From a virus: a DNA stretch of 64,000 bases. Numbering within the stretch: position 1 is the first letter of the stretch; each line of letters begins with the position of its first letter. Location: positions 37,580 through 101,579 of the IMG/VR virus record IMGVR_UViG_3300022925_002539, one strand, 5' to 3'. A program made the position numbers and the translations under genes. The notes under the pieces are model-generated. The model did not search any database, had not been told where the DNA came from, and saw only the letters and a list, made by a program, of their open reading frames with translations. Of the stretch, positions 2,982 through 38,842 are shown piece after piece.

Positions 2982-3515
2982 ATGCTTCCAGAATTAATAT
3001 TTTTTACAGGTGTGCCAGGCAGTCGTTGGAGTGGTATTGCACAGGAGATCAAACAAGACCCAGCTTACGATACAACAGACAGAGCGCCACATAGAGTTTA
3101 TACACACAATAAATTCTCAGGACATCGAGATGCTTATTTTGGCACAGGCATGGAGTTTGATTGTAGTTTATTTGCAAGCAACCTATATGCACCTTTTTCA
3201 GGTACAGGTACTAAATTACTAATGAGTCATGAGTGGCCATATTATTTTTCAGAAATACAATATCAATATCCAGATGCTTGGATACAACTAATATATAGAG
3301 CAGACCAACCTAGTATGGATTGGTGGTTACAAGCCGGAGGTTTTACAATTACATATCCTAACTATGAATGGTATGAAAATATAGATACTATGTGGGAAAG
3401 AATATGTGAACAAAATCAACTTATACTTGACTTTGCTCAGAAACATAAGTTACAATGGAAACAACATCATAAACACAGTGATATTTTCATTACTACATAT
3501 AAAGGTAAACCATGA
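2982..3515 (+). CDS. hypothetical protein, possible sulfotransferase-like P-loop fold
   Basis: N-terminal FFTGVPGSRWS resembles a P-loop/PAPS-binding start. Confidence 0.5.
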   Translation: MLPELIFFTGVPGSRWSGIAQEIKQDPAYDTTDRAPHRVYTHNKFSGHRDAYFGTGMEFDCSLFASNLYAPFSGTGTKLLMSHEWPYYFSEIQYQYPDAWIQLIYRADQPSMDWWLQAGGFTITYPNYEWYENIDTMWERICEQNQLILDFAQKHKLQWKQHHKHSDIFITTYKGKP

Positions 3516-4195
3516 ATCATAAAATCCTTAACAAACTAGAACAGATGATACACGTATCACCTCAACTTCTACGAAATCCAAATACCATGCGTCAAGCAAT
3601 ACAGGCCACATTTAATGTAACTGTAGAAGATGTTGAGTACGAAAACATTGGACAACTAGTAGATAGAATTGATGATAAAGTGTTGGGACATTATTTTGCC
3701 AATGTTTGGCAAGGAGAAATGTCAAAATACAAATACAGTGGTCCAGCACTAATAGATGAAATAAACAAACTGAAACCAAGACATGTTCTAGATATTGGAT
3801 GTGGATACCATGAGTTCAAAGGCAAGATAGACAATATTATAGGGATTGATCCATATAATGATCGTGCTGATTTACAAATCAAACTATTAGATTACTATCC
3901 AGAAGAACGTTTTGATGCAATACTAGCACTAGGAAGTATAAATTTTGGTAGTACAGATAAAATATTTGCTGAGCTAGAACATGCAGTGAGTTTGTGCAAT
4001 CCAGGTGCAGTACTATTCTTTAGAGCAAATCCAGGACTGCCACATGATAAAACAGAATCAAACTGGATTAGTTTTTATCCCTGGGACGCCAACTTTGTAG
4101 TAAATTGTGCTAATCAACTAGGTGTAGACATATTGGATCTACGTACAGACAGTCATAAAAATCGACTGTACTTCGTTTGGAGGACAAAACAGTAA
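3512..4195 (+). CDS. class I SAM-dependent methyltransferase
   Basis: VLDIGCG motif I, GIDP, FDAILA. Confidence 0.85.
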   Translation: MNHKILNKLEQMIHVSPQLLRNPNTMRQAIQATFNVTVEDVEYENIGQLVDRIDDKVLGHYFANVWQGEMSKYKYSGPALIDEINKLKPRHVLDIGCGYHEFKGKIDNIIGIDPYNDRADLQIKLLDYYPEERFDAILALGSINFGSTDKIFAELEHAVSLCNPGAVLFFRANPGLPHDKTESNWISFYPWDANFVVNCANQLGVDILDLRTDSHKNRLYFVWRTKQ

Positions 4196-4545
4196 TGAAG
4201 TGGGAAATATTCCAAAAGAAATATACAAACGTAGGCTTATCCCCAGATGATAGACTATGGGAATATGATGCAGATGGATCACAAATTTATCAACTAAAAT
4301 GTGGATTTGGGTTAAAAACACTATGGGACGGTGGTCGTGCTTATTGGGAAAAAGATTTTGCACAAAAATGGAAAGATGCAAATGAACTATACTTTGCAGT
4401 AAAAGGACAACTTATACCTGATAGTTGGAGCCAAAAAGACGTAGATAGAATGGTTGATAATTATACCGCAAGACTTTGGGGAAACTGTGAACGTTTACCT
4501 CGTACTTCAGAAAAGTTTGAATCTGTCTGGAAAGAACATAAATAA
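4195..4545 (+). CDS. hypothetical protein
   Basis: start moved to the ATG overlapping the upstream TAA (TAATG). Confidence 0.65.
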   Translation: MKWEIFQKKYTNVGLSPDDRLWEYDADGSQIYQLKCGFGLKTLWDGGRAYWEKDFAQKWKDANELYFAVKGQLIPDSWSQKDVDRMVDNYTARLWGNCERLPRTSEKFESVWKEHK

Positions 4546-4552
4546 AAACATA

Positions 4553-4637
4553 CTACAACTAACGCTCGAATGTAAAGAAGTTCAGTTGTAGACTCCCGGA
4601 AATTTTTAAGGCACATTCGCATGTATGCGACTGTGGA
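4553..4637 (+). ncRNA. candidate structured cis-regulatory RNA (pseudoknot versus SD-masking hairpin) in the tctA leader
   Basis: CTACAACT/AGTTGTAG 8-bp stem; loop CGAATGT pairs with ACATTCG; competing hairpin CACA-T-TCGCA-TGTA-TGCGA-C-TGTG. Confidence 0.5.
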
Positions 4638-4643
4638 TTCTCT

Positions 4644-6074
4644 ATGATTGAAATGATTACAGCTTTAATGGCTGGCGTACTATATGGATTACTAATAGGC
4701 ATAATACCTAGTGCAGGTGCTACTACAGGTTTGGTTGCACTGTTTGGTTTTATCAGTTACTTTGTTCATGAACCATATTTAGGTGTAGTATTCTTAATGG
4801 CAGTGGTTGCTGCTAGTACCACAGGCGATAGTTTTACTTCAATATTGTTAGGAATACCAGGAGCAAACAGTGCCGCTGCTACTATGGTAGATGGCTTTCC
4901 ACTTGCACAACAAGGCAGAGCAAGTTATGCAATCAGTGCCGCCGTTACCACTTCAACAGTAAATGGTTTAATTTGGGGTTGTTTAGTGTTCTTATTATTA
5001 CCTTGGTATACAAACTTATTGATGATTATTGGTGTACCTGAACTTTGGGCATTTACTGTACTTGCACTAGCAACAGTTGGATTTATAAGTACAAAATTTT
5101 GGTTCCGTAGTTTGTGTGCAATTTGTATTGGTATATTTTTAGGCATGGTAGGAGTTAACCCAGAAACAAATGAGCCACGTTTTACTGGTAGTTGGTTTTA
5201 TTTAGAAGATGGTATACAACTTATGCCAGTAGTTGCAGGACTATTTGCTATTCCAGAATTAATTAAAGGACTGTTCAATAGAACTAAGACTGCCACTATT
5301 GTAAAAAGCGAATTAACAGAAGGTGTCAAAGAATTTTGGCGTAATCGTTGGTTAGGACTACGAGGCGGTTTTATTGGTGCTTTTATAGGTTTACTGCCTG
5401 GACTAGGAGGTGCTATGGCAGATTGGATGGCATACGGAAGTGCAGTCGCTAGTAATCCAAATGAACGTTTTGGTAACGGCAATATTAAAGGTGTTATAGG
5501 ACCAGAAGGTGCTAATAATGCACAGAAAGCAACAAGTATGATTCCAACAGTTTTATTTGGTATACCAGGTGCACCGTTTGCGGCAGTTTTAATGAGTTTG
5601 TTTATGTATCTAAATTTTGAATTAGGCACACCAGATTTAGCCTACGACACAGAATTTTTTACAAGTATGACATTTGGCTTTTTAAGTGCAACAGTTATAG
5701 TTGCAATATTGTGTATATTTTTAATAAAGCCAATTAGTTATATTACCAGTGTCCCTTACAAATATTATTTTCCTATTTTACTAGCAGTAATTGTATGGAG
5801 TAGTATGCAGTATACAGGAGGCTGGGAAGATTTTGTAATGTTAGCTGTATTTTCCTGCATAGGATTTGTTTGCAGACATTACAAATTTAGTAGACCTGCT
5901 CTACTAATAGGATTTATATTATCCGAAAAAATAGAAAAACTTTCCATACAGATGTTTGCTTTGTATGACATTGAAAGTTTAATTACAAGACCGATATTTA
6001 TGGTATTAGTTATTTTTATTATAGGTATCTTTGCATATAGTTTTATAAAGAAAGGAAAAATCGATTATGCGTAA
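4644..6074 (+). CDS. tctA: tripartite tricarboxylate transporter large permease
   Basis: polytopic membrane protein with two G(I/L)PG repeats, SILLGIPG...DGFPLAQQGRA, FGNGNIKGVIGPEGANNA. Confidence 0.93.
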   Translation: MIEMITALMAGVLYGLLIGIIPSAGATTGLVALFGFISYFVHEPYLGVVFLMAVVAASTTGDSFTSILLGIPGANSAAATMVDGFPLAQQGRASYAISAAVTTSTVNGLIWGCLVFLLLPWYTNLLMIIGVPELWAFTVLALATVGFISTKFWFRSLCAICIGIFLGMVGVNPETNEPRFTGSWFYLEDGIQLMPVVAGLFAIPELIKGLFNRTKTATIVKSELTEGVKEFWRNRWLGLRGGFIGAFIGLLPGLGGAMADWMAYGSAVASNPNERFGNGNIKGVIGPEGANNAQKATSMIPTVLFGIPGAPFAAVLMSLFMYLNFELGTPDLAYDTEFFTSMTFGFLSATVIVAILCIFLIKPISYITSVPYKYYFPILLAVIVWSSMQYTGGWEDFVMLAVFSCIGFVCRHYKFSRPALLIGFILSEKIEKLSIQMFALYDIESLITRPIFMVLVIFIIGIFAYSFIKKGKIDYA

Positions 6075-7128
6075 ATTTTTAATTGCATTATTTTTAATGC
6101 TTAGTACACCAGCACTTGCTGATTATACAATGATAGTACCACAAAAGCCAGGAGGAGGTACAAGTGTGTGGGCACAGATCGTGGCTACAGAAATGGAAAA
6201 ATATTTAGATGAAAAGATTGTTATCAAACACATTAGAGGTGCTAGAGACATTCCTGGATTCAACAAGTTTCACAATGAACTCCAAAATGATCCAAAAACA
6301 ATAATGGTATCTCATGGTGGTAATGGTGTAAGTTTCTTAAACGAAAAGGTAGATTACAACTATGCCGACTATGAAAGTGTAGGATTAATGAATCTAAATA
6401 TTATTGTTGCATCACGTAAGGATCATAATCCATACGGTGGAAAGAAAACTGCTTTTGCTGCTGGTAGTGGAATGATTCCAGAAGGCATTGCAATGACATT
6501 ACTAAAGTGTGGAGCAGGACTTACTACAGAACAATACATTGACTGTTTCAAACGTAAAGTAAACTGGGTAAAAGGTATGTCAGGTGGCGAAAGACGTTTA
6601 GCATTTAAACGTGGCGAACTAGACGGTACTAGAGAAAATCCAGCTGCTTTTAAAAAACATGTTCAACCTACTATTGAACAAGGCGTTGCAGGATTATGGT
6701 TTCACCATGGGATACTACAAGCAGATGGTTCACATGCTGATGATCCAAATTATCCAGGATATCAAATGGAGCAATTATTCTATGCAGCAAATAGAACAAA
6801 ACCAGAAGGTGATTTATATGCCGCCTATAAACTTGTAAAAAGTTTCCGTGATGGTATGCAAAAAGCACTATGGGTTGGAAAAGGAAATCCAAATAAAGCG
6901 AAACTAATCGCAGCATTAAAACAAGTTGCTACAAATCCTGAAAGTGTCAGTGCAGTAGAAAAGAAAGTTGGCAAGTATCAATGGCTAATTGGCAATGCCG
7001 GTGATGCTCATAGAGATACACTGATGAAACTTATTACACCTGAAGCATTAAGTACACTTGTGAAGTTTAATAACGAAGCATTTGGAATTAAAGCTGTGTA
7101 TAAGGATACATTACTTGCCCAAAAATAA
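6067..7128 (+). CDS. tctC: TctC/Bug-like periplasmic substrate-binding protein (divergent)
   Basis: signal peptide ending ALA, IVPQKPGGGTS motif, RGELDG; overlaps tctA. Confidence 0.75.
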   Translation: MRKFLIALFLMLSTPALADYTMIVPQKPGGGTSVWAQIVATEMEKYLDEKIVIKHIRGARDIPGFNKFHNELQNDPKTIMVSHGGNGVSFLNEKVDYNYADYESVGLMNLNIIVASRKDHNPYGGKKTAFAAGSGMIPEGIAMTLLKCGAGLTTEQYIDCFKRKVNWVKGMSGGERRLAFKRGELDGTRENPAAFKKHVQPTIEQGVAGLWFHHGILQADGSHADDPNYPGYQMEQLFYAANRTKPEGDLYAAYKLVKSFRDGMQKALWVGKGNPNKAKLIAALKQVATNPESVSAVEKKVGKYQWLIGNAGDAHRDTLMKLITPEALSTLVKFNNEAFGIKAVYKDTLLAQK

Positions 7129-7354
7129 TAGTGGCATCGTAGTTTACGTTAAATATGCGAGTGCAGTGGTCATACTTATTGCTATGATACTGCATGTCGC
7201 AGGCGTAACTCCATGGAATAGCATACTGCAAATGATAGGTGCTAGTGGGTGGATTTATGTTGGTTTTAAATGGAATGAACGTGCAATTATTCTTAACTTT
7301 TTACCACAGTTTGCGATAATAGTTCCTATGTTAATTTGGATGTACTTATTATGA
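7115..7354 (+). CDS. small membrane protein
   Basis: about 3 hydrophobic segments; TTG start after AAGGA. Confidence 0.65.
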   Translation: MPKNNSGIVVYVKYASAVVILIAMILHVAGVTPWNSILQMIGASGWIYVGFKWNERAIILNFLPQFAIIVPMLIWMYLL

Positions 7355-17061: not shown

Positions 17062-17076
17062 GCATAAATACACTGT
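17061..17076 (+). promoter_or_regulatory. T4-like late promoter, copy 1 of a 16-bp repeat
   Basis: AGCATAAATACACTGT, identical to 19963-19978. Confidence 0.65.
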
Positions 17077-17088
17077 AAGGAGTATATT

Positions 17089-19963: not shown

Positions 19964-19978
19964 GCATAAATACACTGT
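19963..19978 (+). promoter_or_regulatory. T4-like late promoter, copy 2 of a 16-bp repeat
   Basis: AGCATAAATACACTGT, identical to 17061-17076. Confidence 0.65.
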
Positions 19979-19993
19979 GTTTAGGGATATATA

Positions 19994-24188: not shown

Positions 24189-25582
24189 GAATAGACCAGA
24201 TCACTGAAAAGTGGAGCCAAAAATATAAGCGAAGTATAGACTGTAGTAACCCAAAAGGTTTCTCACAGAAAGCTCACTGTGCTGGTCGTAAAAAGAAAAA
24301 GAATGAAAGTATCCGCGAATCATATGAAATAGAGTTTGTTTGTGTAAACCCTAAGTTCTGTGATGCCACTGAGCAAAAGAATCAAGATAGACTATTCCAA
24401 GCACTAAGAGCAGTACCAGGTATTATTGTATACAAGCAAGACTTTGATGAGCATAACAGTATGGCTGCTATTATTAAAGATGAAGCAGACACAGACGCAC
24501 CTAAACTAATACAAAAAATAGCACAACAACACAAAGTTGCTATTGATTTAGAAAATGATGTTAGCCAAAGTATGATGGATGATATTATCACTGGCAGACT
24601 TGAAGGACTCACAGACTATTATGATACAGATAGTTTGTCAGAAGCAAAAGCAAACGAATCTATACCAAGTCCCGATAAAATGGGTAAACCTACTTTACCA
24701 AGTTTACAAAATACAATTCAAGATCTAAACGACTTAATAAAAGACTTAGACAAAGGTAAACCACAACCTAAAGAAATAATACTTGATCCTGAAGATTACA
24801 GAGAGAAACGTAAGAAGTTTAAACAACAAGGTAAGCCTTATATGATTACTAAGGTTCAGGAAGTACAGGTTGACGAAGGTGTAAATGATCCGCACATTTT
24901 TAAAGCAGTGTTTATGGCAGGTGGTCCAGGCAGTGGCAAAAGTTTTGTAGCACAAAACATATTAGGTGGCACAGGATTACGTGCAGTAAACAGTGATGAA
25001 GTATATGAATTTTTATTGAAGCGTCAAGGTCTTTCTCTGGATCCAGACACAATTGCTTCTACCCAGGGCCAAGAAATCAGAGGTACTGCAAAAGACTTAA
25101 CTGCTAAAAGACAACAAAATTATATCGATGGCAGAATAGGATTGTTAATTGATGGTACCGGTAAAAATGTTAGTGTAATACAAGACCTAGCACAAAAATT
25201 AAAGAGCATAGGTTACAGTGTTAGCATGATATTTGTTAATACTAGTTTAGAAGTTGCACAACAAAGAAACAGACAAAGAGACAGAGTTTTGCCTGCTAAT
25301 TTAGTAGCAGACTCTTGGAATGAAGTTCAACAAAACCTTATGAAATATCAGCAAATCTTTGGTGCTGATAGATTTCATATCGTTGATAACAGTGGAGGAT
25401 TAGAAGATCTTGATAGACAAAAAAACTTTGATAAAGTATACAATGAAGTACAACGTTTTTTAAACACTCCACCTAAACATAAAAAAGCATTAGAGTGGAT
25501 TAAAAATCAAAAGGCACAGAACAATGCAAAACCAACAACCAACAGTGGAAAGTCTGATGGAGGAGTTACAAGCACTAACTGA
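24185..25582 (+). CDS. multidomain protein with zeta-toxin-like P-loop kinase domain
   Basis: FMAGGPGSGKS, VNSD, IDGTG, VAQQRNRQRDR; N-terminal KWSQKYKRSIDC..PKGFSQKAHC module. Confidence 0.75.
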   Translation: MRIDQITEKWSQKYKRSIDCSNPKGFSQKAHCAGRKKKKNESIRESYEIEFVCVNPKFCDATEQKNQDRLFQALRAVPGIIVYKQDFDEHNSMAAIIKDEADTDAPKLIQKIAQQHKVAIDLENDVSQSMMDDIITGRLEGLTDYYDTDSLSEAKANESIPSPDKMGKPTLPSLQNTIQDLNDLIKDLDKGKPQPKEIILDPEDYREKRKKFKQQGKPYMITKVQEVQVDEGVNDPHIFKAVFMAGGPGSGKSFVAQNILGGTGLRAVNSDEVYEFLLKRQGLSLDPDTIASTQGQEIRGTAKDLTAKRQQNYIDGRIGLLIDGTGKNVSVIQDLAQKLKSIGYSVSMIFVNTSLEVAQQRNRQRDRVLPANLVADSWNEVQQNLMKYQQIFGADRFHIVDNSGGLEDLDRQKNFDKVYNEVQRFLNTPPKHKKALEWIKNQKAQNNAKPTTNSGKSDGGVTSTN

Positions 25583-37360: not shown

Positions 37361-38842
37361 ATGACTGATCTCCCAACTAACCTAACAGAACTACAAAAAG
37401 ACTATGCAGTATTTTTACCTGCTCTTAGTAGTTTCTATGTAAATGTAACAGGCAAAATAAAACATACTGCAGGCACAAATGAACCAAGTGTCCTTCCTGA
37501 ACGTATACCTAAGCCTATTAGTGCAGATGTACGAGAACTTGACTACTTAAAACCTAATGCACTCTGGCACTATAAGTGGAGTCTACATAGTGCAGGTCAT
37601 GCTAGTTTAGATATAGAAAAAGACTTACCTCGTGAATATATGTATCGTCATCGTGATAAAACAAGTAGTTTTATGCTAGGTGATAGTGGTGGATTCCAGA
37701 TTGGTAAAGGCAAGTGGCCAGGTGATTGGAAGGCAAATAGTGGATGTCCACAAGCACAAAAGAAACGTGAAAGTGTACTGAAGTGGATGGACGAATATAT
37801 GGATTATGGAATGATCCTAGATGTTCCTGCTTGGTTAAGTCGTGAACCGGAAGGTGCAAAGGCGGCTCAGATTAGTTCATATCAAGAGGCAGTAGATGGA
37901 ACTGCATTTAACAATGAATACTTTGTAAACAATCGTAATGGAAATTGTAAGTTCTTAAACGTATTACAAGGTGAAAACCATGCACAAGCCGATGATTGGT
38001 ATAATGCAATGAAAAGGTTTAGTGATCCTAAAATTTATCCTGATGCACATTTTGAAGGTTATGGTATGGGTGGACAAAATGCATGTGATGTACATCTTAT
38101 ATTAAAAAGAATAGTAACCTTAATGCACGATGGTTTACTTGAAAAAGGTAAACATGATTGGATGCATGTTTTAGGAACAGGAAAACTTGAATGGGCTGGT
38201 GTACTGACTGCTATACAACGAGGTGTCCGTAAATTATATAATGAAAATTTTACTGTAAGTTTTGACTGTGCAAGTCCTTTTCTTGCAACAAGTAATGGAC
38301 AACAATATACACATTATCGTATGCCACACAATGGCAAGTGGAAATACATGATGGAAGATGCACCTGATGATAAAAACATGAGTAACAGTATACAAAGTTA
38401 TGATGAATATTGTGAAAGTATATATGATAAATGGATACCTAGTCCTATAACTGAACTAATGAAAGTTAAGGATATTTGTGTCTATGCACCTGGTGATCTT
38501 AACAAAATTGGTAAAGAGGGTAAAACAAGTTGGGATACATTCAGTTATGCACTTCTAATGAATCATAATATGTACTTACACATACGCAGTGTACAGGAAA
38601 CAAATAGACTATATGATGAAGGTCAGTATCCTAAAGAACTAGTTGATGATAACTTTGATCGTACTGAAGTAAAAGATGTAATTGCACACTTGTTTACAAT
38701 GGATGATCGCGACAAACAAAATAAACTAATAGAAGATCATAGTCGACTATGGATGAAAGTTATAGGAAGTCGTGGTGCAACTGGTAAAAGAACAGTAAAT
38801 GCAAGTACACAATTTGCAAGTTTATTCGAGGAAGTTAGTTGA
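37361..38842 (+). CDS. dpdA: TGT-fold 7-deazaguanine transglycosylase (DpdA-like)
   Basis: GDSGGFQ, MILDVP, NVLQG, GMGG, HVLG, SFDC motifs; no CxCxxC zinc site; located in the replication module. Confidence 0.78.
   Translation: MTDLPTNLTELQKDYAVFLPALSSFYVNVTGKIKHTAGTNEPSVLPERIPKPISADVRELDYLKPNALWHYKWSLHSAGHASLDIEKDLPREYMYRHRDKTSSFMLGDSGGFQIGKGKWPGDWKANSGCPQAQKKRESVLKWMDEYMDYGMILDVPAWLSREPEGAKAAQISSYQEAVDGTAFNNEYFVNNRNGNCKFLNVLQGENHAQADDWYNAMKRFSDPKIYPDAHFEGYGMGGQNACDVHLILKRIVTLMHDGLLEKGKHDWMHVLGTGKLEWAGVLTAIQRGVRKLYNENFTVSFDCASPFLATSNGQQYTHYRMPHNGKWKYMMEDAPDDKNMSNSIQSYDEYCESIYDKWIPSPITELMKVKDICVYAPGDLNKIGKEGKTSWDTFSYALLMNHNMYLHIRSVQETNRLYDEGQYPKELVDDNFDRTEVKDVIAHLFTMDDRDKQNKLIEDHSRLWMKVIGSRGATGKRTVNASTQFASLFEEVS

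Follow-up and report, generated by a model that had tools for sequence, protein, structure and literature searches.

What does the unusually long leader of a phage-borne transporter gene do, and is it a switch? The question is raised by a stretch of 64,000 nucleotides (nt) of viral DNA, positions 37,580 to 101,579 of the IMG/VR record IMGVR_UViG_3300022925_002539 (the whole stretch is called the window below), which comes from a viral record of 101.6 kb whose completeness is put at 29%. The gene served by this leader is tctA (4644-6074, plus strand), which encodes a protein of 476 amino acids (aa) matching Pfam PF01970 with an E value of 1.1e-96. Phage tctA has been reported before among auxiliary genes, without a known role (PMC4164917). 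Phage-specific conserved structured RNAs are few, and there is hardly any work on how ‘auxiliary’ transporters carried by phages are regulated. An earlier note on this DNA had proposed a translational switch built of two mutually exclusive folds. We found that the segment 4546-4646 is a real conserved folded RNA motif which has no Rfam family and constitutes a new phage leader motif, backed by covariation and with a defined core. As to its role, we give slightly better than even chances to the following explanation as a whole, drawn from comparison of sequences: the leader would be a cis-acting mRNA element specific to the tctA cassette carried by a group of marine jumbo myoviruses, all uncultured, and would consist of two independent hairpin modules, P1 serving as a recognition hairpin and P2 as the bridge of a split ribosome-binding site (RBS), with the complementarity between the P1 loop and P2 arising by chance.

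A tctA-based search of viral contigs gave 80 loci, about a quarter of which had an alignable leader. With a covariance model (R1) built from 14 leaders, and by scanning viral, metagenome and genome collections for the pattern, we found 74 leader copies, 53 of them distinct, scoring 67-96 bits and residing on IMG/VR and JGI or other metagenome contigs. The TctA N-terminus follows every one of the distinct leaders (53/53), and there is exactly one copy each in the window, in the full record and in five other phage records, two of which are 316 and 328 kb long. In bacteria, the 18 pattern matches were chance ones and the best leader-model score was 17.6 bits (E 1.4); the sole leader match in the bacterial genome collection, L323, lies on a phage-like contig binned in a metagenome-assembled genome (MAG). 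A bacterial origin of the leader was considered and rejected, as these pattern matches are due to chance and the ‘bacterial’ tctA relatives come down to three MAG contigs, with L323 arranged as in phage. Screening of the whole window against Rfam 15 at the gathering threshold returned a tRNA at 1430-1503 as the sole match, while cmscan of 4300-4900 at E values up to 10 gave no match overlapping the leader, and neither did four variant loci at E values up to 1. The earlier note, which did not recognise the structure as a known class, is supported in so far as tctA does have a conserved, structured leader specific to this gene and without an Rfam match.

The fold itself is carried by the comparison of homologues. 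On the 53 distinct sequences, 95% of cells are paired in the combined structure of P1 and P2, 12 of its pairs show double changes, and its covariation score of 0.305 was reached by none of 500 shuffles (0.118) and compares with at most 0.052 for slid partners. RNAalifold, run independently, returned P1 and P2 only. G-U pairs outnumber A-C pairs in this fold (46 vs 14), which indicates that it sits in the RNA of the coding (plus) strand. The fold of the single sequence is unexceptional (z -1.06), and a perfect 7-nt complement such as that of the P1 loop arises in about 4% of shuffles; the single sequence therefore proves little. Neither an intrinsic terminator nor a sigma-70 promoter was predicted in the leader on the plus strand.

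The hairpin P2 (4612-4635, plus strand; CACA-U-UCGCA and UGCGA-C-UGUG closed by the loop UGUA, predicted at -10.7 kcal/mol) was already described in the earlier note, and it does covary in homologues, with double changes in 6 of 10 pairs (alignment A2). That note regarded GTGGA, which the hairpin overlaps, as the only element before the ATG resembling a Shine-Dalgarno (SD) sequence. This is incorrect, as an invariant AAGG is present at 4608-4611, directly 5' of the hairpin, and we propose it as the true SD of a split RBS. AAGG abuts P2 with zero gap in 15 of 16 representatives, and P2 stops 8 nt short of the AUG in 14 of the 16 and 7 nt short of it in one; in the window, the 8-nt spacer GAUUCUCU leads to the AUG of tctA (spacer and AUG, 4636-4646). 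P2 varies in length from 18 to 25 nt, and in stability from -5 to -16 kcal/mol among representatives, while the geometry of AAGG and AUG stays fixed. Counted linearly, the last G of AAGG lies 26-33 nt from the AUG in 15 representatives, and the usual SD in this phage's genes is AAGG or AGGA placed 6-11 nt before the ATG. Three divergent leaders (L323, L327 and L328) were found independently of the P2 sequence. Their P2 closing pairs differ (CGC/GCG, CGU/GCG) and the hairpin is retained; the spacers AUAUAUCU, GUAUUCCU and AUUUGCU replace the common GAUUC, and there is no purine-rich or SD-like element between P2 and the AUG. GTGGA is absent from all three, so it cannot be a required SD, whereas AAGG, the hairpin and the 7-8-nt spacing are kept.

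Because the AAGG-P2-AUG geometry is fixed and these three leaders have no SD near the AUG, we consider it more likely that P2 is the bridging hairpin of a split RBS. The real SD would be the AAGG, which at 26-33 nt from the AUG would be too distant in linear sequence, and P2 would fill this gap, leaving an effective spacing of 7-8 nt. The hairpin would in that case enable initiation, not block it.

Split ribosome-binding sites were shown experimentally for genes 25 and 38 of phage T4 (PMC3014915). As we propose for tctA, the SD of these genes is too far from the AUG and a conserved hairpin restores the spacing (from 22 to 5 nt and from 27 to 11 nt in T4, from 26-33 to 7-8 nt in the tctA leader), and in both cases the mRNAs are of the late type. 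On the other hand, tctA encodes a transporter, while the T4 genes encode baseplate or tail-fibre proteins; the lineages are unrelated, and the tctA leader has no sequence similarity to the T4 sites, carries a weak proximal GGA in most copies and has a function that is, here, a predicted one. The T4 work on split sites is reportedly that of Nivinskas et al. (1999) and of Malys and Nivinskas (2009). If P2 works as proposed, the split RBS, so far described in T-even phages, would also occur in a distant lineage of marine jumbo phages.

P1 occupies 4553-4591 on the plus strand (RNAfold gives -11.0 kcal/mol, and the comparative data agree). Its basal stem, 4553-4560 with 4584-4591 (strands CTACAACT and AGTTGTAG), and the AAC/GTT extension are present just as first noticed, with C4583 bulged. 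Above the stem lies an invariant core, AAC (4561-4563) paired with GUU (4580-4582) together with the bulged C and a 2x1 internal loop with GC (4564-4565) opposite A4579, which reads GC or GG opposite A among relatives. Next comes a short covarying helix, P1b (UC 4566-4567 with GA 4577-4578), capped by a 9-nt apical loop, GAAUGUAAA, at 4568-4576. In alignment A4 the P1 helix is 99% paired, with double changes in 6 of 10 pairs and AAC/GUU invariant; the basal helix, 7-9 base pairs long, covaries freely and exists in at least ten distinct versions. The P1b pairs covary as well (UA/CG/AU and CG/GC/UA) across 22 distinct loops, in the versions UC/GA, CU/AG, UCU/AGA, UCC/GGA, AGAC/GUCU and UGAC/GUCA, and the apex varies freely, from a loop of 7-9 nt up to an extra stem-loop. 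A P1-only model has one match per genome. P1 also occurs without P2, in L002, L021, L006, L012 and L026, where it lies between a methyltransferase gene and a P-loop gene that belongs to the same cassette and precedes tctA; these P1-only leaders have AAAGG, 6-8 nt and the AUG, with no intervening hairpin.

The linker between the two hairpins (4592-4607, plus strand) reads A-N-N-CCC(C), with CCC at 4595-4597, and continues as an A/U-rich run (4600-4607). CCCC is kept in nearly all 53 distinct P1+P2 leaders and partly kept in the P1-only ones, and no conserved pairing partner was found for the linker. An anti-SD role of CCCC on AAGG was considered on inspection and rejected, as it would make at most 2-3 pairs and these are not conserved.

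With its fixed core set between variable helices, P1 is probably a sequence-specific recognition hairpin that would mark the cassette mRNA at its head, and it is most likely bound by a trans-acting factor that would set the stability or the translation of this single operon. The partner would more probably be a protein than a metabolite, since the apex is free, there is no conserved alternative pairing and P1 does not touch the SD. The translational operators of the T4 type (gene 32 leader, gene 43 operator and RegA sites; PMC3014915) offer a parallel, as they too are gene-specific structures of the 5' leader with an A/U-rich stretch up to the RBS. They differ in that the T4 ones are bound by phage proteins and in that P1 is a bulged hairpin, unlike the gene 32 pseudoknot; there is no homology.

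A motif just upstream of the leader, also seen in the earlier note as TAAATA, is the ATAAATA at 4538-4544 (plus strand), which resembles a T4-type late promoter and overlaps the stop codon of the upstream open reading frame (ORF; stop at 4543-4545). The string CATAAATA at 4537-4544 fits the T4-type late promoter consensus TATAAATA. ATAAATA is 3.4-fold depleted in the window (13 observed vs 44.8 expected), and 8 of 10 plus-strand sites sit 5-30 nt before a start codon; from this depletion and placement, it is plausible that the site at 4538 is a late promoter, which we treat as a candidate in that use. The leader, at about 95-100 nt, is exceptional for this phage, in which other ATAAATA sites lie 5-30 nt from the start codon that follows. 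At least 8 different gene ends occur upstream of the leader, every one of them closing with (N)TAAATAA, and P1 remains adjacent to tctA despite unrelated insertions upstream. P1 is thus part of the transporter cassette, at its head, and not of the upstream gene.

Several observations do not sit well with the explanation we prefer. A weak SD-like GGA lies 6 nt before the AUG in the window and in most relatives, and the pairing predicted for AAGG with a generic anti-SD is weak: at about -3 kcal/mol, it does not exceed that of GUGGA. The conserved GAUUC after P2 is left unexplained by a split RBS. Leaders of the L030/L031 type keep P2 and the old AUG without AAGG; they have lost AAGG and have a new SD, GGGGA, and a new start 15 nt downstream. 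As for P1 at the transcript head, leaders located directly after the methyltransferase gene carry CTAAATA or CTAAGTA, which are not promoter-like in this window, and P1 starts 2 nt after this motif in three P1-only loci and 3 nt after it in a fourth. With a start so close to the motif, P1 is not always the 5' end of a transcript and must act within longer transcripts too.

Two alternatives keep some weight. According to one of them, P1, perhaps together with CCCC, is the aptamer of a new riboswitch class for the transported solute or for a metabolite of the cassette, and the ligand alters translation or stability. We consider this fairly unlikely, and unlikely the more specific version in which the P1 core, perhaps with the CCCC block, forms the aptamer of an undescribed, phage-only class that senses an imported solute or a metabolite modified by the cassette. 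A conserved and covarying structure with invariant unpaired nucleotides, strictly tied to one transporter cassette, present as a single copy per genome and matching no Rfam family, is what one might expect of a riboswitch, and small single-hairpin aptamers with conserved bulges are known, for example domain 1 of NAD+-I (PMC7297122). However, an expression platform is not apparent: there is no conserved alternative pairing, no terminator is predicted, RNAalifold gives only P1 and P2, and complementarity of the loop to the spacer or to P2 is not above chance. The P1 apex varies freely, there are P1-only leaders which lack P2, CCCC is not fully kept and P1 lies away from the SD. Moreover, the motif is limited to one phage lineage and no bacterial copy was found. 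If P1 did bind a metabolite, this would identify the substrate of the widespread phage TctA system, and if it were a riboswitch, a jumbo phage would be adjusting an auxiliary transporter according to the metabolic condition of the cell it infects.

Among known classes, the NAD+-I riboswitch (nadA motif, RF03013) is the one we compared in architecture. Like the tctA leader, it consists of two stem-loops in tandem, with conserved bulges; it contains a C-rich element, ACANCCCC, and its second domain adjoins the RBS (PMC6859854, PMC7297122). In the tctA leader, in contrast, CCCC belongs to the linker instead of a bulge, conserved internal nucleotides are lacking in P2 and the two domains are unalike; the gene context and the host group also differ. 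Membership in the nadA family was rejected, as cmscan gave no match to it even at E values up to 10.

The other alternative, which we find about as improbable as a new riboswitch class, is that P1 and P2 are passive elements of processing or stability, that is, protective stem-loops or an RNase III or RNase E site between cistrons. Hairpins at gene boundaries and at 5' ends commonly stabilise mRNA. P1 lies at a gene boundary or near a predicted 5' end, and probably stands inside a polycistronic RNA in some loci, which would suit such a role. Yet stabilisers do not need an invariant core (AAC/GUU, the bulged C and the GC-by-A loop) and would be expected at many gene boundaries, whereas this hairpin is found once per 328-kb genome. 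The geometry of AAGG, P2, 7-8 nt and AUG would also be left unexplained.

The toggle put forward in the earlier note, in which an H-type pseudoknot alternates with the hairpin at 4612-4635 that masks the SD GTGGA, fares much worse, and we regard it as very unlikely. It is true that CGAATGT (4567-4573) in the P1 loop is exactly complementary to ACATTCG (4613-4619), that this 7-nt pairing excludes P2, that the duplex is worth -7.8 kcal/mol and that the complement is kept in the closest relatives (L235, L267 and L286). However, pairing in the pseudoknot columns reaches 69% across the 53 aligned sequences, near the levels of shuffles (64%) and of partners slid by -2 columns (65%). In relatives with the same P1 loop, changes in the 5' strand of P2 are compensated within P2 and not in the loop, and RNAalifold yields P1 and P2 only; one-sided, uncompensated changes of the pseudoknot occur in L253, L298, L239, L280, L234 and L260. 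The large L024 clade keeps the loop GAAUGUAAA and has no complement to it, and GTGGA is missing in L323, L327 and L328. A 7-nt loop complement arises by chance with P of 0.037-0.043 (20000 shuffles), and we thus consider the pairing of the loop to P2 in the window sequence a chance complement and unlikely as a toggle. Of the proposed translational switch, the conserved structured leader is supported and the toggle is not.

Finally, we give hardly any credence to the idea that P1 acts in DNA as a site of recombination or cassette exchange (integron attC-like, or as in the promoter-stem-loop cassettes of T4 type), since its AAC...GTT core, extrahelical base and variable centre and the gene-insertion hot spot just upstream are outweighed by the lack of a tyrosine recombinase (PF00589) in G000, G001 or the complete G002, by the single P1 per genome, by the excess of G-U over A-C pairs, which points to coding-strand RNA, and by insertions that lie upstream of TAAATAA and not at GTT.

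Other candidate elements of the leader were tried and rejected. An outer helix in which the A-rich 5' flank would pair with the linker's U-run occurs in the window and the L024 type and is absent from types B and D, the flanks being on inspection just A/U-rich. The GAAU/AUUC idea, in which the apical loop of P1 would pair with the spacer and the AUG, showed no trend: duplex energies set against those of shuffled loops in 29 loop and spacer combinations had p values ranging from 0.01 to 0.92. Sites of CsrA type were not supported, as GGA occurs in a hairpin loop in some types only and there is no consistent second site. A leader peptide was dismissed because neither the AUG-UAA at 4570-4575 nor a 7-codon frame in some type B loops is conserved across types. 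This AUG-UAA, located in the P1 apical loop, is kept in all leaders with the GAAUGUAAA loop, absent from other loop types and preceded by no SD.

As to the source, one record related to the window is a complete genome of 328 kb that has terminal repeats, and another is a genome of 316 kb. The phage DNA polymerase is closest to those of Sinorhizobium phage Phosso (51%), of Agrobacterium phage Atu_ph07 (48%) and of Rak2-like jumbo phages, and tctA of this kind is absent from the cultured phages in the collection examined. Downstream of tctA, an ORF of 353 aa (6067-7128) has about 110 N-terminal residues that weakly resemble BugD (2f5x, E 0.008) and TctC (6hke, E 0.02), without a Pfam TctC match; it is overlapped by an ORF of 90 aa (7082-7354) that matches DUF6552 (E 1e-11). 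TctB was not recognised. Upstream, the window has a methyltransferase gene at 3512-4195 that is 80% identical to its L024 neighbour. In the window and in L018, the interval from this gene to the leader has taken up unrelated genes, and it is an insertion hot spot, occupied by ORFs of 116-122 aa in the window (4195-4545), by one of 216 aa in L018 (2242-2892) and by others elsewhere.

Several individual loci deserve mention. L323 (PBLX01000022.1, 61 kb, in a Legionellales MAG bin) has the order methyltransferase, divergent leader and tctA, with a TctA identity of 70%; it is probably a phage contig mis-binned into the MAG, or else the bin possibly hints at the host. L261:1-620 (minus strand) has two leaders in tandem, one of L037 type with the first ~43 codons of tctA and then, after ...GAGCCATATA, one of L246 type with the full tctA; this metagenome contig is either genuine, as a duplication or recombination junction, or an assembly chimera made from two strains. 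In L030:2975-3005 and L031:1560-1576, the old AUG opens a 4-codon frame (AUG GGG AAA UUA UAA in L030), and its stop codon overlaps with the start that tctA has gained (UAAUG). At another gene of the window, starting at 25524, the sequence AAAAGGCACAGAACA-ATG (25503-25526) has the leader's AAAGGCAC string 9 nt before the ATG with no hairpin between. A 14-nt string, CATAAATACACTGT, occurs at 17063-17077 and again at 19965-19979, in both places some 20 nt ahead of a start codon.

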